This document shows, one piece after another, positions 14,239 through 36,942 of a stretch of DNA of 64,000 bases (positions within the stretch are counted from its first letter, which is position 1; the number at the start of each line of letters is the position of its first letter). The stretch is from assembly GCF_053078305.1 (NCBI RefSeq), contig NZ_CP166879.1, one strand, 5' to 3'. A program made the position numbers and the translations under genes. The notes beneath the pieces are model-generated. The model did no database searches. It was not told where the DNA came from and saw only the letters and a list, made by a program, of their open reading frames with translations.

Positions 14239-16071
14239 GTGAACGGTGAATTGATTTGGGTTCTTTCATTACTGGCCGTTGCCATCGTCTTGTTTGCGAC
14301 GGGCAGAGTGCGTATGGATGCGGTCGCTTTGTTTGTTATTGTCGCGTTTGCATTAAGCGGAACGCTGACAGTCCCAGAAGTATTTTCCGGCTTTTCTGAT
14401 CCTAACGTTGTCCTGATTGCCGCCTTGTTTATTATTGGCGATGGTTTGGTCCGTACCGGTGTTGCCACCGTAATGGGAACATGGCTGGTCAAAGTTGCGG
14501 GCAACAGTGAAATCAAAATGTTGGTTTTGTTGATGCTGACCGTCGCGGGGCTTGGCGCGTTTATGAGTTCAACCGGCGTTGTCGCTATCTTTATTCCCGT
14601 GGTGTTAAGCGTTGCCATGCGTATGCAAACTTCGCCGTCACGTCTGATGATGCCGTTAAGTTTTGCCGGGCTGATTAGCGGCATGATGACGCTGGTGGCG
14701 ACGCCGCCGAACCTGGTAGTCAACAGTGAATTGCTGCGTGAAGGCTATCACGGCTTCAGTTTCTTTAGCGTAACACCTATTGGCCTGGTCGTGCTGGTGC
14801 TGGGTATTTTGTATATGTTAGTGATGCGTTTCATGCTGAAAGGGGATACCCAGACCCCGCAGCGCGAAGGCTGGACGCGTCGAACCTTTCGCGATCTTAT
14901 CCGTGAATATCGACTGACCGGGCGTGCGCGACGTCTGGCTATTCGCCCCGGATCGCCAATGATTGGTCAACGGCTGGATGATCTCAAATTACGTGAGCGT
15001 TATGGCGCTAACGTCATCGGTGTTGAACGCTGGCGGCGTTTTCGTCGCGTTATCGTGAACGTTAATGGGGTTTCTGAATTTCGCGCGCGTGACGTTTTGC
15101 TTATTGATATGTCTGCGGCTGATGTCGATCTCCGGCAATTTTGTAGTGAGCAATTGCTGGAGCCGATGGTACTGCGCGGCGAGTATTTTTCTGACCAGGC
15201 CCTTGATGTGGGCATGGCAGAGATTTCATTAATTCCTGAGTCAGAACTGATTGGTAAATCGGTGCGCGAAATTGGTTTTCGTACCCGCTACGGACTGAAT
15301 GTGGTGGGGCTAAAGCGCAATGGCGTGGCGCTGGAAGGTTCGCTGGCGGATGAGCCTCTGCTGCTGGGCGATATCATCCTGGTTGTGGGTAACTGGAAAC
15401 TGATCGGTATGCTGGCCAAACAGGGCCGCGACTTCGTAGCGCTGAACTTACCGGAAGAGGTGAGTGAAGCATCGCCCGCGCACAGCCAGGCACCCCATGC
15501 CATTTTCTGTCTGGTGCTAATGGTGGCGTTAATGCTGACAGATGAAATTCCTAATCCTGTTGCCGCTATCATCGCCTGCCTGCTGATGGGGAAATTCCGC
15601 TGTATAGATGCTGAAAGCGCCTATAAATCCATTCACTGGCCGAGCATTATTTTGATCGTTGGGATGATGCCGTTTGCTGTGGCATTACAGAAAACGGGAG
15701 GTGTCGCGCTGGCGGTGAAAGGGCTGATGGACATTGGCGGTGGTTACGGGCCACATATGATGCTGGGTTGTTTGTTTGTCTTGTCGGCGGTTATTGGGCT
15801 ATTTATCTCTAATACCGCGACGGCGGTGTTGATGGCTCCGATTGCGCTGGCTGCTGCCAAAACGATGGGGGTGTCGCCTTATCCATTCGCGATGGTCGTG
15901 GCGATGGCAGCATCCGCCGCCTTTATGACACCGGTTTCTTCACCTGTTAACACACTGGTTTTAGGTCCGGGAAATTACAGCTTCAGTGACTTTGTGAAGT
16001 TGGGGGTACCGTTCACCATTATCGTGATGGCGGTTTGTGTGGTGATGATCCCGATGCTGTTTCCGTTTTGA
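14239..16071 (+). CDS. yfbS: Putative transporter YfbS (membrane domains flanking two cytoplasmic TrkA-C-like regions)
   Basis: 610-aa ORF, GTG start, hydrophobic N- and C-terminal halves with a soluble central region. Confidence 0.85.
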
Positions 16072-16077
16072 CAAGAG

Positions 16078-16116
16078 CCTGATGTCGCATCCGGCGCTTA
16101 TTGCCTGATGCGACGC
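16078..16116. repeat. REP-like palindromic element between convergent yfbS and yfbR
   Basis: gcctgatgcgacgc motif and partner inverted copy (gatgtcgcatccggcgc), resembling enterobacterial REP units. Confidence 0.45.
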
Positions 16117-16129
16117 AGACTCCGGCTGC

Positions 16130-16729
16130 TTACAGCGGTGAATCCTGGCTAATCTCATCGAGCGAAAGATGGAAGCTGGGAACAAATACTTCCATGAAGT
16201 AGTCCATCTCCTGGCTGCGACGCGCTTCAAGCGTCGCTTCCAGTCGCGTTTTTGCCAGCAAGAATTCATTATTTCCGGCCGCGAGTTCTTCCAGACATTT
16301 CAGATATGCACACAGTGCATCTGCCTGTTTCACCAGCGATTTTTCTTCATCGCTATATGCATGCTCGTCAATTAACGGCGCAAAGATATCCCGCAGCTCT
16401 TCCGGAACCATATCGACCAGTTTTTGCTGAGCGATTTTTTCAATCGCCTTGTACTCCTGAGCGATTTGCGAATTGAAGTATTTCACCGGAGTAGGGAGAT
16501 CGCCGGTGAGCACTTCTGAGGCATCGTGGTACATCGCCAGTAAAGCGATACGTTCGGCGTTGACATTACCGCCAAATTTCCGATTTTTGATAGCTGCCAG
16601 CGCATGGGCGACCATCGCTACCTGCAAACTGTGTTCGGACACATTTTCCGTCCGCACGTTGCGCATGAGCGGCCAGCGGTTAATGAGTTTCAGGCGGGAG
16701 AGATGGGCAAAAAAATGGCTCTGTTTCAT
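16130..16729 (-). CDS. yfbR: HD-domain 5'-deoxynucleotidase YfbR
   Basis: 199 aa; HD motif ([15 protein letters not shown]) visible. Confidence 0.9.
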
Positions 16730-25373: not shown

Positions 25374-25419
25374 CCGAATTTCGATTAACGCTCAGTCTCT
25401 GACTGAGAAAACTGGAAGC

Positions 25420-28152
25420 ATGCTAATGGCTACAATTCATGTAGACGGCAAAGAATACGAGGTCAACGGAGCGGACAACCTGCTGGAAGCTTGTCTGTCT
25501 CTGGGCCTTGATATTCCTTACTTTTGCTGGCATCCGGCGCTGGGAAGCGTCGGTGCTTGCCGCCAGTGTGCGGTGAAGCAATACCAAAACGCGGAAGACA
25601 CGCGTGGTCGCCTGGTGATGTCCTGTATGACACCGGCTTCCGATGGCACCTTTATTTCCATTGACGACGAAGAAGCGAAACAGTTCCGTGAAAGTGTGGT
25701 CGAGTGGTTAATGACCAACCACCCGCACGACTGTCCGGTATGTGAAGAAGGCGGTAACTGCCATCTTCAGGATATGACCGTGATGACCGGACACAGCTTC
25801 CGTCGCTACCGTTTCACCAAACGTACCCACCGTAATCAGGATTTGGGGCCGTTCATCTCTCACGAAATGAACCGCTGCATCGCCTGCTACCGCTGCGTGC
25901 GTTACTACAAAGATTACGCTGACGGTACAGATCTGGGCGTTTATGGCGCGCACGACAACGTCTACTTCGGTCGCCCGGAAGACGGCACGCTGGAAAGCGA
26001 ATTTTCCGGTAACCTGGTCGAAATTTGCCCGACCGGCGTATTTACCGACAAAACGCACTCCGAGCGTTACAACCGTAAATGGGATATGCAGTTTGCACCG
26101 AGCATCTGCCAGCAATGTTCCATCGGCTGTAACATCAGCCCCGGTGAACGTTACGGCGAACTGCGTCGTATCGAAAACCGTTACAACGGTACGGTAAACC
26201 ACTACTTCCTCTGCGACCGTGGTCGTTTCGGTTACGGTTACGTCAACCTGAAAGATCGTCCGCGTCAGCCAGTACAGCGTCGTGGCGATGATTTCATTAC
26301 CCTCAACGCCGAACAGGCAATGCAGGGCGCAGCAGATATTCTGCGTCAGTCGAAGAAAGTGATCGGCATTGGTTCTCCGCGCGCCAGCGTGGAAAGCAAC
26401 TTTGCGCTGCGTGAGCTAGTGGGCGAAGAAAACTTCTACACCGGTATCGCTCACGGTGAGCAGGAACGTCTGCAACTGGCGCTGAAAGTGCTGCGTGAAG
26501 GCGGCATTTATACTCCGGCTCTGCGCGAAATCGAATCTTACGATGCGGTACTGGTGCTGGGCGAAGACGTTACCCAGACCGGCGCGCGCGTCGCGCTGGC
26601 AGTGCGTCAGGCGGTGAAAGGTAAAGCGCGCGAAATGGCGGCAGCACAGAAAGTGGCTGACTGGCAGATTGCGGCAATCCTCAATATCGGTCAACGTGCT
26701 AAGCATCCGCTGTTTGTTACCAACGTTGATGACACCCGTCTGGATGATATCGCGGCGTGGACTTACCGCGCACCGGTTGAAGATCAGGCGCGTTTAGGTT
26801 TTGCCATCGCCCATGCGCTGGATAACTCTGCGCCAGCGGTTGACGGTATTGAACCTGAGCTGCAAAGCAAAATCGACGTCATCGTGCAGGCACTGGCGGG
26901 TGCGAAGAAACCGTTGATTATCTCCGGGACGAACGCCGGTAGCGCTGAAGTAATTCAGGCTGCGGCTAACGTCGCGAAAGCCCTGAAAGGTCGCGGCGCT
27001 GACGTCGGTATCACCATGATTGCCCGTTCCGTCAACAGCATGGGGCTGGGCATTATGGGCGGTGGATCGCTTGAAGAAGCGTTAACCGAACTGGAAACCG
27101 GACGCGCCGACGCGGTGGTGGTGCTGGAAAACGATCTGCATCGTCACGCTTCTGCTACCCGCGTGAATGCTGCGCTGGCTAAAGCGCCGCTGGTGATGGT
27201 GGTTGACCATCAACGCACAGCGATCATGGAAAACGCCCATCTGGTGCTTTCCGCTGCCAGCTTTGCTGAAAGCGACGGTACGGTAATTAATAATGAAGGT
27301 CGCGCCCAACGTTTCTTCCAGGTTTACGATCCGGCTTATTACGACAGCAAAACTGTCATGCTGGAAAGCTGGCGCTGGTTACACTCGCTGCACAGTACCC
27401 TGTTGAGCCGTGAAGTGGACTGGACGCAGCTCGACCATGTGATTGACGCTGTTGTGGCGAAAATCCCGGAACTGGCAGGTATCAAAGATGCTGCGCCGGA
27501 TGCGACATTCCGTATTCGTGGGCAGAAACTGGCCCGTGAACCGCACCGTTACAGCGGTCGTACCGCCATGCGCGCCAATATTAGCGTTCATGAGCCGCGT
27601 CAGCCGCAGGATATTGACACCATGTTCACCTTCTCGATGGAAGGTAACAACCAGCCGACTGCGCACCGTTCGCAAGTGCCGTTTGCCTGGGCGCCAGGCT
27701 GGAACTCCCCGCAGGCGTGGAACAAATTCCAGGACGAAGTGGGCGGCAAACTGCGCTTTGGCGATCCGGGCGTGCGTCTGTTTGAAACCAGCGAAAATGG
27801 TCTGGATTACTTCACCAGCGTACCGGCACGCTTCCAGCCGCAGGACGGGAAATGGCGTATCGCGCCGTACTACCACCTGTTTGGCAGCGATGAATTGTCA
27901 CAGCGTGCTCCGGTCTTCCAGAGCCGTATGCCGCAGCCGTACATCAAACTCAACCCAGCGGATGCCGCGAAGTTGGGTGTGAACGCAGGTACACGCGTCT
28001 CCTTTAGTTACGATGGCAACACGGTCACGCTGCCGGTTGAAATCGCTGAAGGGCTGACGGCAGGGCAGGTGGGCTTGCCGATGGGTATGTCCGGCATTGC
28101 TCCGGTGCTGGCTGGCGCGCATCTTGAGGATCTCAAGGAGGCACAACAATGA
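25420..28152 (+). CDS. nuoG: NADH-quinone oxidoreductase subunit G
   Basis: 910-aa ORF; N-terminal 2Fe-2S/4Fe-4S cysteine clusters; true start may be the Met 2 codons in. Confidence 0.95.
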
Positions 28153-30249: not shown

Positions 30250-30548
30250 TCCCCTTACAACATGGACTGATCCTCGCGGCAATCTTATTCGTTCTTGGCT
30301 TAACCGGTCTGGTTATCCGTCGCAATCTGCTGTTTATGCTGATTGGTCTGGAAATCATGATTAACGCCTCCGCGCTGGCCTTTGTGGTCGCCGGAAGCTA
30401 CTGGGGTCAGACCGACGGTCAGGTGATGTACATTCTCGCCATCAGCCTCGCGGCGGCAGAAGCGAGTATCGGCCTTGCGCTGCTGCTGCAACTTCACCGT
30501 CGTCGCCAGAACCTGAACATCGATTCAGTAAGTGAGATGCGCGGATGA
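30246..30548 (+). CDS. nuoK: NADH-quinone oxidoreductase subunit K
   Basis: 100-aa membrane subunit; overlaps nuoJ and nuoL. Confidence 0.95.
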
Positions 30549-32386
30549 ACATGCTTGCCTTAACCATTATTTTGCCATTGATTGGCTTCGTCCTGCTGGC
30601 GTTCTCCCGTGGGCGCTGGTCTGAAAACGTTTCGGCGATCGTCGGCGTTGGCTCTGTGGGCCTGGCGGCGCTGGTAACCGCTTTTATCGGCGTTGATTTC
30701 TTCGCTAACGGCGAGCAGGCTTACAGCCAGCCGCTGTGGACGTGGATGTCGGTAGGCGACTTTAACATCGGTTTCAATCTGGTGCTGGACGGCCTGTCGC
30801 TGACCATGCTCTCGGTGGTCACTGGTGTGGGTTTCCTGATCCACATGTACGCCTCCTGGTACATGCGCGGTGAAGAGGGCTACTCTCGCTTCTTCGCCTA
30901 CACCAACCTGTTCATCGCCAGCATGGTAGTTCTGGTGCTTGCCGACAACCTGCTGCTGATGTACCTCGGCTGGGAAGGCGTGGGCCTGTGCTCCTATCTG
31001 CTGATCGGTTTCTATTACACCGATCCGAAGAATGGCGCAGCGGCAATGAAAGCGTTCGTCGTGACCCGTGTGGGTGACGTGTTCCTCGCTTTCGCGCTGT
31101 TCATTCTTTACAACGAACTGGGCACCCTGAACTTCCGCGAAATGGTGGAACTGGCACCAGCGCACTTTGCTGACGGCAATAATATGCTGATGTGGGCGAC
31201 GCTGATGCTGCTGGGCGGTGCGGTCGGTAAATCTGCGCAGTTGCCGTTGCAGACATGGCTTGCCGACGCGATGGCGGGCCCGACGCCTGTCTCCGCGCTG
31301 ATCCACGCCGCAACGATGGTAACCGCGGGTGTCTACCTGATCGCCCGTACCCACGGCCTGTTCCTGATGACGCCGGAAGTTCTGCATCTGGTGGGTATTG
31401 TCGGGGCGGTTACGCTGCTGCTGGCCGGTTTTGCCGCGCTGGTACAGACCGACATCAAACGTGTTCTCGCTTACTCTACCATGAGCCAGATTGGCTACAT
31501 GTTCCTCGCGCTTGGCGTGCAGGCATGGGATGCGGCGATTTTTCACTTGATGACCCACGCGTTCTTTAAAGCGCTGCTGTTCCTGGCATCCGGTTCCGTC
31601 ATTCTGGCCTGCCATCACGAACAGAACATCTTCAAGATGGGCGGTCTGCGTAAATCTATTCCGCTGGTTTATCTCTGCTTCCTGGTGGGCGGCGCAGCAC
31701 TGTCGGCACTGCCGCTGGTCACTGCGGGCTTCTTCAGTAAGGATGAGATCCTCGCGGGTGCGATGGCGAATGGTCATATCAATCTGATGGTGGCAGGTCT
31801 GGTCGGTGCGTTTATGACCTCGCTCTACACCTTCCGTATGATTTTCATCGTCTTCCACGGAAAAGAACAAATTCACGCTCACGCCGTGAAAGGGGTAACT
31901 CACAGCCTGCCGCTGATTGTGCTGCTGATCCTTTCCACCTTCGTTGGCGCACTGATTGTACCGCCGCTGCAGGGCGTGCTTCCGCAAACGACGGAACTGG
32001 CGCACGGCAGCATGTTGACCCTGGAAATTACCTCTGGCGTGGTCGCGGTGGTCGGCATTCTGCTGGCAGCCTGGCTGTGGCTGGGTAAACGTACTCTGGT
32101 GACCTCCATCGCCAACAGTGCGCCGGGCCGTCTGCTGGGCACCTGGTGGTACAACGCCTGGGGCTTTGACTGGCTGTACGACAAAGTGTTCGTCAAGCCG
32201 TTCCTGGGTATTGCCTGGTTGCTGAAACGCGATCCGCTGAACTCAATGATGAACATTCCGGCGGTTCTTTCCCGCTTTGCAGGTAAAGGCCTGCTGTTAA
32301 GCGAGAACGGTTATCTGCGCTGGTATGTGGCATCCATGAGCATCGGTGCGGTCGTGGTGCTGGCACTGTTGATGGTACTGCGTTGA
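30545..32386 (+). CDS. nuoL: NADH-quinone oxidoreductase subunit L (antiporter-like)
   Basis: 613-aa Mrp-antiporter-like membrane subunit. Confidence 0.95.
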
Positions 32387-32425
32387 GTTAAGGATTGTGG
32401 GATTGCCCCTGGGCATATAAGAACG

Positions 32426-32462
32426 TAGGTCGGATAAGCCTCCTTCGCGGTGCATCCGACAC
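32426..32462. repeat. Degenerate REP-like palindromic element in nuoL-nuoM spacer
   Basis: Reverse complement gtgtcggatgcaccgcgaaggaggcttatccgacctac resembles the REP consensus (…GGATGC…CTTATCCGGCCTAC). Confidence 0.4.
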
Positions 32463-32549
32463 TACCCCCAGTCCGAAGAGAATTTTCTGTCGTGAGAATT
32501 CGTTGAAAATCCGGTCCTGACGGGACTTTTACAAGGAATAAAGATCGCC

Positions 32550-34079
32550 ATGTTACTACCCTGGCTAATATTAATTCCCTTTATCGGCGGCTTCCTGTGC
32601 TGGCAGACCGAACGCTTTGGCGTCAAGGTGCCGCGCTGGATCGCGCTGATCACCATGGGATTGACGCTGGCGCTGTCGCTGCAACTGTGGTTGCAGGGCG
32701 GTTATTCACTGACGCAATCCGCCGGAATTCCGCAGTGGCAGTCTGAATTCGACATGCCGTGGATCCCGCGTTTTGGTATCTCTATCCATCTCGCCATTGA
32801 CGGGCTGTCGCTGCTGATGGTCGTGCTGACCGGTCTGCTCGGTGTGCTGGCGGTACTCTGTTCGTGGAAAGAGATCGAAAAATATCAGGGCTTCTTCCAC
32901 CTCAACCTGATGTGGATCCTGGGCGGCGTTATCGGCGTGTTCCTTGCCATCGACATGTTCCTGTTCTTCTTCTTCTGGGAAATGATGCTGGTGCCGATGT
33001 ACTTCCTGATCGCACTGTGGGGGCATAAAGCCTCTGACGGTAAAACGCGTATCACGGCGGCAACCAAGTTCTTCATTTACACCCAGGCGAGTGGTCTGGT
33101 GATGTTGATCGCCATCCTGGCGCTGGTTTTTGTTCACTACAATGCGACCGGCGTCTGGACCTTCAACTATGAAGAGCTGTTGAATACGCCAATGTCCAGT
33201 GGTGTGGAATATCTGTTGATGCTGGGCTTCTTCATCGCGTTTGCGGTGAAAATGCCGGTGGTTCCGCTGCATGGCTGGCTGCCGGATGCGCACTCACAGG
33301 CTCCGACCGCCGGTTCCGTGGACCTCGCGGGGATCTTGCTGAAAACCGCTGCTTACGGTCTGCTGCGTTTCTCCCTGCCGCTGTTCCCGAACGCGTCGGC
33401 AGAGTTCGCGCCAATCGCTATGTGGCTGGGTGTTATCGGCATCTTCTACGGTGCGTGGATGGCCTTCGCCCAGACCGATATCAAACGTCTGATCGCCTAC
33501 ACCTCGGTTTCCCACATGGGCTTCGTGCTGATTGCTATCTACACCGGCAGCCAGTTGGCCTACCAGGGCGCGGTAATCCAGATGATTGCGCACGGCTTGT
33601 CGGCGGCGGGTCTGTTTATTCTCTGCGGTCAGCTTTATGAACGTATCCATACCCGCGACATGCGCATGATGGGCGGTCTGTGGAGCAAGATGAAATGGCT
33701 GCCAGCACTGTCGCTGTTCTTTGCGGTGGCAACGCTTGGGATGCCTGGCACCGGTAACTTCGTCGGCGAATTTATGATTCTGTTCGGCAGCTTCCAGGTT
33801 GTCCCGGTGATTACCGTTATCTCTACCTTTGGGCTGGTCTTTGCATCTGTTTATTCGCTGGCGATGTTACATCGCGCTTACTTCGGTAAAGCGAAAAGCC
33901 AGATTGCCAGCCAGGAACTGCCAGGGATGTCGCTGCGTGAGCTGTTTATGATCCTGTTGCTGGTGGTGCTGCTGGTACTGCTGGGCTTCTATCCGCAGCC
34001 GATTCTGGATACCTCGCACTCCGCGATTGGCAATATCCAGCAGTGGTTTGTTAATTCCGTTACTACTACAAGGCCGTAA
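32550..34079 (+). CDS. nuoM: NADH-quinone oxidoreductase subunit M
   Basis: 509-aa antiporter-like membrane subunit. Confidence 0.95.
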   Translation: MLLPWLILIPFIGGFLCWQTERFGVKVPRWIALITMGLTLALSLQLWLQGGYSLTQSAGIPQWQSEFDMPWIPRFGISIHLAIDGLSLLMVVLTGLLGVLAVLCSWKEIEKYQGFFHLNLMWILGGVIGVFLAIDMFLFFFFWEMMLVPMYFLIALWGHKASDGKTRITAATKFFIYTQASGLVMLIAILALVFVHYNATGVWTFNYEELLNTPMSSGVEYLLMLGFFIAFAVKMPVVPLHGWLPDAHSQAPTAGSVDLAGILLKTAAYGLLRFSLPLFPNASAEFAPIAMWLGVIGIFYGAWMAFAQTDIKRLIAYTSVSHMGFVLIAIYTGSQLAYQGAVIQMIAHGLSAAGLFILCGQLYERIHTRDMRMMGGLWSKMKWLPALSLFFAVATLGMPGTGNFVGEFMILFGSFQVVPVITVISTFGLVFASVYSLAMLHRAYFGKAKSQIASQELPGMSLRELFMILLLVVLLVLLGFYPQPILDTSHSAIGNIQQWFVNSVTTTRP

Positions 34080-34085
34080 ATCGCC

Positions 34086-35543
34086 ATGACAATAACTCCA
34101 CAAAACCTGATCGCACTGCTACCGTTGCTGATCGTCGGCTTGACGGTGGTGGTTGTGATGCTCTCCATTGCGTGGCGACGCAATCATTTCCTCAACGCTA
34201 CGCTCTCGGTTATTGGGCTTAACGCGGCGCTGGTTTCGCTCTGGTTTGTTGGCCAGGCGGGCGCTATGGACGTTACGCCGCTGATGCGCGTTGATGGTTT
34301 CGCCATGCTTTACACCGGGCTGGTATTGTTGGCGAGCCTCGCCACCTGTACTTTCGCCTACCCGTGGCTTGAAGGCTATAACGACAACAAGGATGAGTTC
34401 TACCTGTTGGTGTTAATTGCCGCGCTGGGCGGGATCCTGCTGGCGAATGCAAACCATCTGGCGTCTCTGTTCCTCGGTATTGAACTGATCTCTTTGCCGC
34501 TGTTTGGCCTGGTCGGTTACGCTTTCCGCCAGAAACGTTCGCTGGAAGCCAGTATCAAATACACCATCCTTTCTGCCGCAGCGTCTTCTTTCCTGCTGTT
34601 CGGTATGGCGCTGGTGTATGCGCAGTCTGGCGACCTGTCGTTTGTCGCGCTGGGTAAAAACCTCGGCGACGGTATGCTCAACGAGCCGCTGTTGCTGGCA
34701 GGTTTCGGTCTGATGATTGTTGGCCTCGGCTTCAAACTCTCTCTGGTGCCGTTCCACCTGTGGACGCCAGACGTATACCAGGGCGCGCCTGCGCCGGTTT
34801 CCACTTTCCTGGCGACGGCGAGCAAAATCGCTATCTTCGGTGTAGTGATGCGTCTGTTCCTCTACGCACCGGTGGGTGACAGCGAAGCGATTCGGGTGGT
34901 GCTGGCGATTATCGCCTTTGCCTCCATCATCTTCGGTAACCTGATGGCGCTGAGCCAGACCAACATCAAACGTCTGCTCGGTTACTCATCTATCTCTCAC
35001 CTCGGCTATCTGCTGGTGGCGCTGATTGCGCTGCAAACCGGCGAGATGTCGATGGAAGCGGTAGGGGTTTACCTGGCCGGTTATCTGTTCAGCAGCCTCG
35101 GCGCGTTCGGCGTGGTCAGCCTGATGTCCAGCCCGTATCGTGGCCCGGATGCTGATTCCCTGTTCTCTTACCGCGGTCTGTTCTGGCATCGTCCGATCCT
35201 CGCGGCGGTGATGACGGTGATGATGCTGTCTCTGGCCGGTATCCCGATGACGCTGGGCTTTATCGGTAAGTTCTACGTGCTGGCGGTCGGTGTCCAGGCA
35301 CACTTGTGGTGGCTGGTGGGTGCCGTGGTTGTCGGTTCGGCAATCGGCCTCTACTACTACCTGCGCGTGGCGGTGAGCCTGTACCTGCACGCACCGGAAC
35401 AACCGGGTCGCGATGCACCGTCAAACTGGCAGTACAGCGCGGGCGGTATCGTGGTGCTGATCTCCGCACTGTTGGTACTGGTGCTGGGTGTATGGCCACA
35501 ACCGCTGATTAGCATTGTGCGGTTAGCAATGCCACTGATGTAA
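34086..35543 (+). CDS. nuoN: NADH-quinone oxidoreductase subunit N
   Basis: 485-aa antiporter-like membrane subunit; last gene of cluster. Confidence 0.95.
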
Positions 35544-35562
35544 TCTGTTAGTTTGTAAGTCA

Positions 35563-35593
35563 GAAAGCCGCCGACATGTTCGGCGGTTTTTTT
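35563..35593. terminator. Bidirectional rho-independent terminator between convergent nuoN and downstream ORF
   Basis: aaagccgccgacatgttcggcggttttttt: 7-bp GC stem, 5-nt loop, flanked by A-run and T7. Confidence 0.7.
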
Positions 35594-35620
35594 ATGGTAT
35601 TTATAAAGAAATTAGAAGAG

Positions 35621-36097
35621 TTAATCCCACCAACAAATAACCGGATGCATACCCGCAGGGACCTCAACCCATCCATGATTCGTATCTTCTGACCATCCTT
35701 CCCAACACTCATCAGGGGCAATTTCTTCTACAAACCAGCTCTGAACTTCTTCTGGTGAAGCAGAAGTGATAACTAAAATACGTTCACTAAAGGGCCAGTC
35801 TGGGTCATCGAACATTGTAATCTCTACCAAAACATCACTGACATCGTTACGCTCACGAATTTTCTGTAAATGGTGATAGATAGTTTGCGGAGATTGTTCT
35901 GGAGTCACATTGCAACATATCGAACCGACGATATTATTGCCGATAAAAAAATCCTCAAGAGATAACAATGGACGCAGGGTATCAGGATCATTAACATCAC
36001 CGTTGATATTAACAAGTTGGGTAATGCGTTCTAAAGGTGTCATAATCATTCCTTGAAATAATTCATTCATCAAGTGAATGGTATTGTCTGAATTCAT
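35621..36097 (-). CDS. Hypothetical acidic cytoplasmic protein, 158 aa; family not recognisable from sequence alone (may correspond to yfbO/yfbP locus)
   Basis: Intact ORF with its own start, sits between nuoN terminator and yfbN; acidic, Trp-rich C-terminus (…ECWEGWSEDTNHGWVEV…VICWWD). Confidence 0.5.
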   Translation of the reverse strand: MNSDNTIHLMNELFQGMIMTPLERITQLVNINGDVNDPDTLRPLLSLEDFFIGNNIVGSICCNVTPEQSPQTIYHHLQKIRERNDVSDVLVEITMFDDPDWPFSERILVITSASPEEVQSWFVEEIAPDECWEGWSEDTNHGWVEVPAGMHPVICWWD

Positions 36098-36225
36098 TAA
36101 CGAATAAATAGAAACAACGCCATACGTCTTATTAGTTTCAGGAGTATCATAACATGGACGTTAAGCAGGAAATGCAGTTATACCATTGTTATATATAATA
36201 TCTTAAATATTTAAAGGCTTATGAC

Positions 36226-36942
36226 ATGGAATGGTTAAGTGAAATTCGCAAACTTCGGGAGAGCATATCTGTCGGTATCCAGGCTGCCAGGCGTTTGTTA
36301 GAGAAGACTGGTGGTGATGTTGATGAAGCCATTAAGTTGTTTCATATTGACCAAATCAATATATTGACGGCAAAAGTAGACGTCACTCATCAGGAGGCAG
36401 AGAATGTTTTGCTGGCGGCAAACTACGATATGGCAGAAGCTCTTCGGCGTATTGATGAACAGCGTTATACACTGACGGAATTGATTATACGTAAAAATAA
36501 GGATGCCGGAGATGCTTTAAGTAATATAGAATTAGCAATAACATATGAATGGAATCTGACATGCAAATTTTGGTTTGGTTTTAAGGCATTCCAGTCGCTG
36601 CCTCCACAATTACAAGCCTTTATGCTGGTATGTGAATGGCGTAACTATTGGGGATGGGAAGGCCTGGATAGTGCGTTATATTATGAGATGGACAATGTCC
36701 CCCAACAATTACAGGTAGTAGGCTTAGATGAAATGGCTAAAGTTATTGTTGTGGCGAGAAATCGTTATGATGAGTTAAGAGCACAAGGCAAAGAGCATAA
36801 TAAAATCATTAAAGATGATAAATTTAAAAAATTTATGAAGCACTGTGAACAACTGGATAGTGAAGTAGACTCTATATTACTGCAATTTGTGAAGGATAAT
36901 ATTGAGGTTTTCCCACGTCGCCACAACGGACACGATTTATAA
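36226..36942 (+). CDS. yfbN: Uncharacterized protein YfbN-like, 238 aa, with two N-terminal UBA/TS-N-like helical motifs
   Basis: Length and synteny match yfbN; repeated motif (GIQAARRLLEKTGGDVDEAIKLF / EAENVLLAANYDMAEALRRI) resembles UBA-like domains. Confidence 0.6.
   Translation: MEWLSEIRKLRESISVGIQAARRLLEKTGGDVDEAIKLFHIDQINILTAKVDVTHQEAENVLLAANYDMAEALRRIDEQRYTLTELIIRKNKDAGDALSNIELAITYEWNLTCKFWFGFKAFQSLPPQLQAFMLVCEWRNYWGWEGLDSALYYEMDNVPQQLQVVGLDEMAKVIVVARNRYDELRAQGKEHNKIIKDDKFKKFMKHCEQLDSEVDSILLQFVKDNIEVFPRRHNGHDL

Follow-up and report, generated by a model that had tools for sequence, protein, structure and literature searches.

The stretch of DNA analysed here (the window, 64,000 nt) belongs to an E. 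coli chromosome and runs in the orientation opposite to the K-12 map. It carries nuoL (30545-32386), nuoM (32550-34079) and nuoN (34086-35543), all on the + strand, with a gap of 163 bp between nuoL and nuoM. Elsewhere in the window, yfbS (14239-16071, + strand) and yfbR (16130-16729, - strand) are convergent and separated by a gap of 58 bp. Each gap holds a palindrome, which we designated site 1 (nuoL-nuoM) and site 2 (yfbS-yfbR). A preliminary description of the two palindromes had named the four flanking genes correctly, and the operon-internal and convergent settings that it gave agreed with the gene coordinates. The region around site 1 was 100% identical to strain 14EC033. The features of the two gaps are as follows.

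16076-16094, no strand assigned: equivalent of K-12 REP168, AGCCTGATGTCGCATCCGG, a collapsed REP consisting of the lower stem only; coordinates mapped through locus L004.
16084-16114, no strand assigned: main hairpin of the yfbS-yfbR spacer, in which the REP heads GCCGGATGCGAC (- strand) and GCCTGATGCGAC (+ strand) stand face-to-face across 7 nt, as judged from arms, folds and BIME geometry.
16103-16116, + strand: exact z2-type REP head GCCTGATGCGACGC with no REP tail behind it, a 14-mer that otherwise starts full REPs.
32393-32402, no strand assigned: left flank of a former REP pair, GGATTGTGGG, which pairs with 32465-32474 in minimum-free-energy folds.
32404-32418, + strand: remnant of the partner REP, TGCCC joined to CTGGGCATAT, with about 17 nt of interior deleted relative to the intact Citrobacter/Klebsiella REP in the alignment.
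32425-32460, - strand: REP (palindromic unit, y-type variant), identified by covariance model, fold and the determinants listed below.
32441, + strand: T in the window strain where K-12 and most E. coli have G, disrupting one pair of the upper stem, as aligned over six E. coli variants.
32465-32474, no strand assigned: right flank of the former REP pair, CCCCCAGTCC, complementary to 32393-32402.
32496-32511, + strand: conserved box GAATTCGTTGAAAATC, at least 90% conserved across genera.
32513-32527, + strand: small hairpin GGTCCT-GAC-GGGACT followed by UUUU, identified by covariation in 16 orthologues.

Site 1 lies 38 nt past the nuoL stop codon and 89 nt ahead of the nuoM start, and its + strand reads cGTAGGTCGGATAAGCCTCCTTCGCGGTGCATCCGACAC at 32425-32462. 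Its inverted arms (32429-32435 and 32454-32460) match perfectly over 7 nt, and the RNA was predicted to fold at -20.3 kcal/mol (z = -3.85), a stability equalled by none of 200 shuffles. The palindromes reported in the preliminary description are real at both sites by this measure, with 0 of 200 shuffles as stable in either case; its limits for site 1 were displaced by 1-2 nt from those of the element, 32425-32460.

To compare the sites with the REP family, a covariance model designated R1 was constructed from 26 distinct canonical K-12 REPs drawn from 190 kb, with the nuoL-nuoM copy excluded. In the R1 alignment, 97.5% of hairpin cells were paired and four pairs had changed on both sides, and the alignment was consistent with the published consensus GCCGGATGCGGCGTGAACGCCTTATCCGGCCTAC (PMC12306157). 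With filters off, site 1 matched R1 on the minus strand with 27.1 bits (E ~2.5e-4), the top match in the 64-kb window (128 kb searched). The K-12 copy of site 1 scored 34.5 bits and the copy of a divergent Escherichia (L009) 40.3 bits, while site 1 itself scored under all 26 training REPs (34-59 bits). A separate REP-like palindrome, AT-rich and located about 64 nt downstream of a yfbM-like ORF (37662-38165), was recorded by the REP covariance model at 37563-37598 on the - strand (GCTGGATGTGATGCAGAAATGTTTTATCCAGCTTAC; 23.3 bits, E 1.9e-3). The surrounding region, 35544-37661 after nuoN, has a gene content unlike that of K-12: it lacks about 0.9 kb at the position of K-12 yfbP, and between yfbN and yfbM it has some 0.45 kb of additional sequence, in which there are two small ORFs.

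The E. coli TnpA_REP protein needs four features in a y-type REP, namely GTAG, which plays a crucial role, a lower stem with T11 and G32, an AA/GC bulge, and an upper stem-loop of free sequence (PMC8266576). At site 1, GTAG is present at the hairpin foot (32425-32428, + strand), the lower stem GTCGGAT/ATCCGAC is perfectly paired over 7 bp and contains the equivalents of T11 and G32, and an unpaired AA (32436-32437) faces GC (32452-32453). The second lower-stem pair is T:A instead of the consensus C:G, a compensated change for which L009 shows a T.G intermediate. In minimum-free-energy folds, the upper stem-loop has 5 pairs and a 4-nt loop in the K-12 allele and 3 pairs and an 8-nt loop in the window allele. 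As far as sequence and predicted fold can tell, site 1 is a real but low-tier REP, and to call it degenerate is fair.

No Rfam family passed its gathering threshold anywhere in the window except the nuoG RNA motif (RF01748), which scored 50.3 bits against a threshold of 33 at 25376-25418 on the + strand. Rfam returned no match to a dedicated REP family for site 1. A permissive search gave naRNA4 (RF02564, REP325-derived) at 32428-32465 with 13.8 bits and an E-value of 3.5, below the gathering threshold of 59.5; this weak score is consistent with a single REP matching part of a two-REP model. A match to SAM-III at permissive Rfam thresholds was dismissed as chance. A terminator scan of 32200-32700 found no intrinsic (Rho-independent, U-tract) terminator, and a promoter scan found no match to a sigma-70 promoter in the nuoL-nuoM spacer. 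Two small ORFs that extend into the spacer (32395-32520, + strand; 32462-32656, - strand) were dropped, as their frame is unconserved and the orthologous spacers contain large indels.

A literature search found no paper naming a REP or an ERIC at nuoL-nuoM, and nothing was found in the RepRanger and Dar & Sorek supplements. In the K-12 numbering of REPs, REP166 and REP167 are unaccounted for between 2.35 and 2.41 Mb. The K-12 RefSeq record NC_000913.3, as read here, lists no REP or repeat_region features; the missing annotation is uninformative, because malE-malF, used as a positive control, is empty as well.

Within E. coli, the 163-bp spacer allele that carries the REP is single-copy in the 4698 genomes that contain it. 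GTAG, the lower stem and the bulge were unchanged among the six E. coli variants compared, and the variation specific to the window falls in the upper stem, where the T at 32441 costs about 5 kcal/mol (-25.7 kcal/mol for the K-12 hairpin vs -20.3 kcal/mol for the window). The exact 65-nt variant of the window is rare, being found in 79 of 4697 genomes.

The spacer is dimorphic in the species. A further 724 genomes (13%) carry an unrelated allele of 230 bp in place of the 163-bp REP allele. O157:H7, strain C, B/BL21 derivatives and many clinical isolates belong to this group; K-12 has the REP allele. Positions 82-199 of the 230-bp allele consist of a 118-bp repeat that is dispersed in 4-5 copies per genome, and the centre of this repeat agrees with the ERIC core GGAGCTTACATAAGTAAGTGA in 18 of its 21 positions. 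The corresponding features are given below.

L001-L003, 688-917: the 230-bp allele, counterpart of 32387-32549 in the window.
L001, 769-886, and L089, 301-418: the 118-bp dispersed repeat, one copy of which lies between pheM and pheS.

The 230 bp together with the first 74 nt of nuoM were 100% identical to those of Salmonella enterica subsp. arizonae CCUG 6322T (L001 688-991 vs L011 671-974). The nuoL sequence adjoining this shared patch is only 85.5% identical between E. coli and S. arizonae, and the next closest spacers to the 230-bp allele are 90-93% identical. The alignments thereby indicate a probable short-patch exchange of the spacer between genera. Import into E. coli would be the simpler reading of its direction.

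To follow the spacer across genera, residues 1-200 of NuoM were scanned against one genome per species, which yielded 80 Enterobacterales loci (L009-L088). Spacer length in these 80 species ranged from 21 to 291 bp, and the spacers were composed of interchangeable modules: a REP pair, the box, the hairpin, an ERIC-like element and two ribosome-binding-site haplotypes. An intact tail-to-tail REP pair occupies the same place in Citrobacter sp. R56, C. sedlakii, C. amalonaticus, Pseudocitrobacter, Klebsiella spallanzanii and Pseudescherichia vulneris, and in each of these orthologues it belongs to the species' own REP type. Inverted repeats flank the pair in Citrobacter sp. R56, Pseudocitrobacter, K. 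spallanzanii and C. sedlakii. The pair of Citrobacter sp. R56 was predicted to form one REPIN-like hairpin of 100 nt (-65.5 kcal/mol, z -9.1), and the base of that hairpin is formed by the flanks orthologous to 32393-32402 and 32465-32474.

Just 15 nt of the left REP remain in the window, and the 83-nt fold has a z of only -2.0, so that the two inverted REPs in one long hairpin by which a REPIN is recognized are not found here. As read from these alignments, site 1 probably derives from an old tail-to-tail REP pair (REPIN/BIME-like) and is the half that survives, the left member having been stripped of its interior in Escherichia. The lower stem of the surviving REP was 100% paired across ten orthologues from 7 genera, with three pairs changed on both sides, compared with 22-54% pairing in slid controls. 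This pairing would fit either selection for the hairpin or homogenisation by the REP population of each genus.

The remainder of the spacer ahead of nuoM contains the box and the small hairpin at 32513-32527, both of which are common to many enterobacterial genera. The TTGAAA box was present in 34 of the 80 spacers. As the -35 element of a nuoM promoter it was rejected, there being no acceptable -10 element and the promoter scan being negative. The small hairpin lies 6 nt upstream of the nuoM Shine-Dalgarno sequence AAGGA (32533-32537). Across 16 orthologues, 92.9% of its cells were paired and three pairs had changed on both sides (slid controls, 26-71%), and its stability in the window was unexceptional (z -0.16). 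Many genera have the ERIC-like element at this very hairpin, which may be a target or footprint of that element rather than an independent regulatory structure. Considered together, the alleles and orthologues describe the nuoL-nuoM gap as a place in which small mobile repeats appear to have been repeatedly gained, lost and swapped.

At site 2, two arms of 12 nt (16084-16095 and 16103-16114) are 92% complementary and lie 7 nt apart. The predicted fold was -27.4 kcal/mol on the + strand (z -4.16) and -30.3 kcal/mol on the - strand (z -4.95), and none of 200 shuffles was as stable. The hairpin begins 4-6 nt from each of the two stop codons. The left arm is the reverse complement of the GCCGGATGCGAC head, the right arm opens the exact z2-type head TGCCTGATGCGACGC, and the head motif GCCKGATGCG(AC) has an exact copy on each strand, at 16103 (+) and 16095 (-). 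Elsewhere in 264 kb, the 14-mer GCCTGATGCGACGC occurs 7 times, each time as the beginning of a full REP. The junction, ...GCATCCGGC-N6-TGCCTGATGCGACGC, has the geometry of the head-to-head BIME junctions that follow pgi and lamB in K-12.

The two REPs of site 2 lack GTAG/CTAC, bulge, upper stem and tail. At the foot, AAGA precedes GCCTGAT on the + strand, and on the - strand GTAAG lies 2 nt off the stem and overlaps the yfbR stop codon. In a spacer-only search, R1 gave 5.6 bits at 16073-16095 with the upper stem entirely skipped, and the whole-window R1 search gave no match to site 2 at E <=10. The preliminary description had regarded both palindromes as degenerate, ordinary REP-type elements and had named a poor match to REP covariance models as what would refute it. 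The model agreed at site 1, its best match in the window, and failed to recover site 2, which by that criterion is no full REP but is REP-derived all the same. We interpret site 2 as a decayed BIME-like junction of REP origin in which two heads pair as a 12-bp hairpin, a reading drawn from its letters; with tails, bulges, upper stems and GTAG gone from both REPs, the heads would be left to pair with each other.

The yfbS-yfbR spacer was at least 99% identical in 5227 of 5425 genomes (96%), and 101 nt of site 2 were 100% identical in a K-12 genome. A comparison with reference REP annotations, also proposed earlier, succeeded at this site: REP168, annotated at K-12 2409497-2409515 between yfbS and yfbR (Harris et al. 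2026 supplement, 10.64898/2026.03.23.713779), maps to 16076-16094. The yfbS-yfbR hairpin is further tabulated as a bidirectional terminator of convergent genes, and site 2 overlaps a NusG/Rho termination region (10.64898/2026.03.23.713779 supplement). With a REP168 entry and a listed bidirectional terminator, site 2 is therefore already catalogued. A terminator scan of 15900-16300 found no U-tract terminator. One weak promoter-like match in the yfbS-yfbR spacer was at chance level and was discarded.

The best overall explanation of these observations, to which we assign a probability of roughly 0.8, combines membership of both sites in the REP family, the history outlined above and a mechanism taken from the family. 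As expected of family members, each transcribed hairpin would resist 3'-to-5' exonucleases and could favour Rho-dependent termination. Stem-loops lacking U-tracts mark and protect Rho-dependent 3' ends (PMC6061677). Published expression data indicate that REPs between convergent genes accompany higher expression of both genes, that tandem gene pairs holding REPs show upstream-biased expression, more strongly with canonical REPs, and that the bias is weakest for low-conservation REPs. For the two convergent mRNAs, site 2 would most likely define and protect the 3' ends. Termination of translation may be hindered as well, because the hairpin starts 4-6 nt after each stop codon; by a published rule, a REP no more than 15 nt from a stop codon may affect translation, and site 2 falls inside this range.

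For site 1, the terminator listed after nuoN is associated with the genes from nuoG to nuoN (10.64898/2026.03.23.713779 supplement). This association suggests that transcripts read through the nuoL-nuoM spacer, and with it site 1. Stabilisation of mRNA by site 1 is plausible by analogy with other REPs. Its effect would be modest at most, either a little protection for the nuoA-L part of the mRNA or incomplete attenuation ahead of nuoMN, because it is a single sub-canonical REP, read-through is implied and the element is absent in 13% of E. coli. The site-1 REP also appears dispensable, since those 13% have none. The subunits of complex I are required in equal amounts, which argues against strong polarity between nuoL and nuoM.

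The most substantial alternative is that both palindromes are decaying REP or REPIN insertions that are functionless now, their conservation in E. coli reflecting a short divergence time. We consider this a real possibility, although one with the odds somewhat against it. The left REP of the former pair is short by 17 nt, the window strain bears a stem-breaking mutation, 724 genomes have unrelated sequence in place of the whole spacer, spacer length varies between 21 and 291 bp in 80 species, and site 2 has neither tails nor upper stems, all as expected of neutral relics. Such relics would not readily account for the complete pairing and double changes of the site-1 lower stem over 7 genera, for the conservation of site 2 (99% identity or more in 96% of genomes) and its coincidence with an entry in the bidirectional-terminator table, or for the genome-wide correlation between the presence of REPs and the expression of neighbouring genes. 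At the opposite extreme, the nuoL-nuoM spacer could be a selectively maintained, modular control region for nuoM/nuoN, composed of the REP hairpin, the box and the covarying hairpin, and at the same time a hot spot of mobile-repeat exchange between genera; we regard this as doubtful, and clearly less probable than neutral decay.

The remaining readings are weaker still. Site 2 could be a plain terminator hairpin of convergent genes whose likeness to REPs is incidental, given its 5.6 bits, its lack of GTAG, bulge and upper stem, and its place in the bidirectional-terminator table. This is improbable: the 14-mer GCCTGATGCGACGC was otherwise encountered solely where full REPs begin (7 of 7 in 264 kb), the junction matches the K-12 pgi and lamB BIMEs, REP168 is annotated here, and a U-tract is absent. 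A role at the level of DNA, with the elements serving as IHF or DNA gyrase binding sites on the chromosome, is slightly less probable again. Binding of IHF and gyrase is among the proposed roles of REPs, and the Boccard and Hofnung groups have reportedly observed gyrase and IHF binding at some BIMEs. IHF sites lie in the L motif of BIME-1, and high-affinity gyrase sites are known from multi-REP BIME-2 arrays and not from REPs that are single or collapsed. Against this background, the BIME-1 L motif is absent, both sites are single or collapsed REPs rather than arrays, and the IHF consensus WATCAANNNNTTR was found in neither spacer with up to one mismatch, which leaves the IHF binding mentioned in the preliminary description unsupported. 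REP325 was also without effect on nucleoid compaction (Harris et al., 10.64898/2026.03.23.713779). That the palindromes arose by chance and mean nothing biologically was rejected with near certainty. Short GC-rich inverted repeats do arise randomly, and exact GCCKGATGCG 10-mers occur in coding sequence at 27495 and 33281, yet no shuffle out of 200 folded as well at either site, the model E-value for site 1 was 2.5e-4, and both sites are conserved in thousands of genomes, site 1 also across genera.

With the REP-family reading preferred, the two palindromes themselves matter little, because no non-coding repeat is commoner in E. coli than REPs and site 2 is already catalogued as REP168 and as a bidirectional terminator. 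The mild surprises are limited to the spacer polymorphism and the Salmonella-identical allele. Site 1 stands in an operon for a complex that requires its subunits in equal amounts, where REP-driven polarity would be unwelcome, and the REP spacer of K-12 vs the ERIC-like spacer of B/BL21, C and O157:H7 amounts to a natural allele swap bearing on whether such elements tune nuoM/nuoN expression. The Salmonella-identical allele cleanly illustrates the exchange, as a short patch, of a non-coding spacer from one genus to another.

Compared with known systems, the ERIC/IRU miniature inverted-repeat elements are resembled by the 118-bp repeat of the 230-bp allele through its ERIC-like core (18/21), a modest likeness in an allele that lies outside the window. 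The REPs of yjdM-yjdN (REP325) and malE-malF resemble site 1 in placing a hairpin between co-transcribed genes, and by analogy an exonuclease barrier with partial Rho-dependent attenuation would be expected. In contrast, REP325 has 12 hairpins and malE-malF two canonical REPs, whereas site 1 is a single sub-canonical REP, and the products of its operon are required in equal amounts. REPIN and BIME elements are matched by the orthologous Citrobacter/Klebsiella pair, and site 2 shares the head-to-head spacing of K-12 BIME junctions. The window differs from them in that the partner of site 1 is gutted, the tails and upper stems of site 2 are lost, and the IHF-binding L motif is missing. Site 1 shares GTAG, a lower stem of 7 bp, the AA/GC bulge, its extragenic position and its 36-nt length with the y-type REP of E. 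coli; the upper stem-loop of that type is weakened in the window allele. It departs from that type in the T:A of pair 2, in its upper-stem and loop sequence (CCGC-CTTC-GCGG in K-12) and in the stem-breaking T of the window. Site 2 has the same locus and the same sequence as REP168 of K-12, although the annotated REP168 covers 19 nt only (16076-16094) and the hairpin in the terminator table about 46 nt. At both sites, the kind of element is already known.
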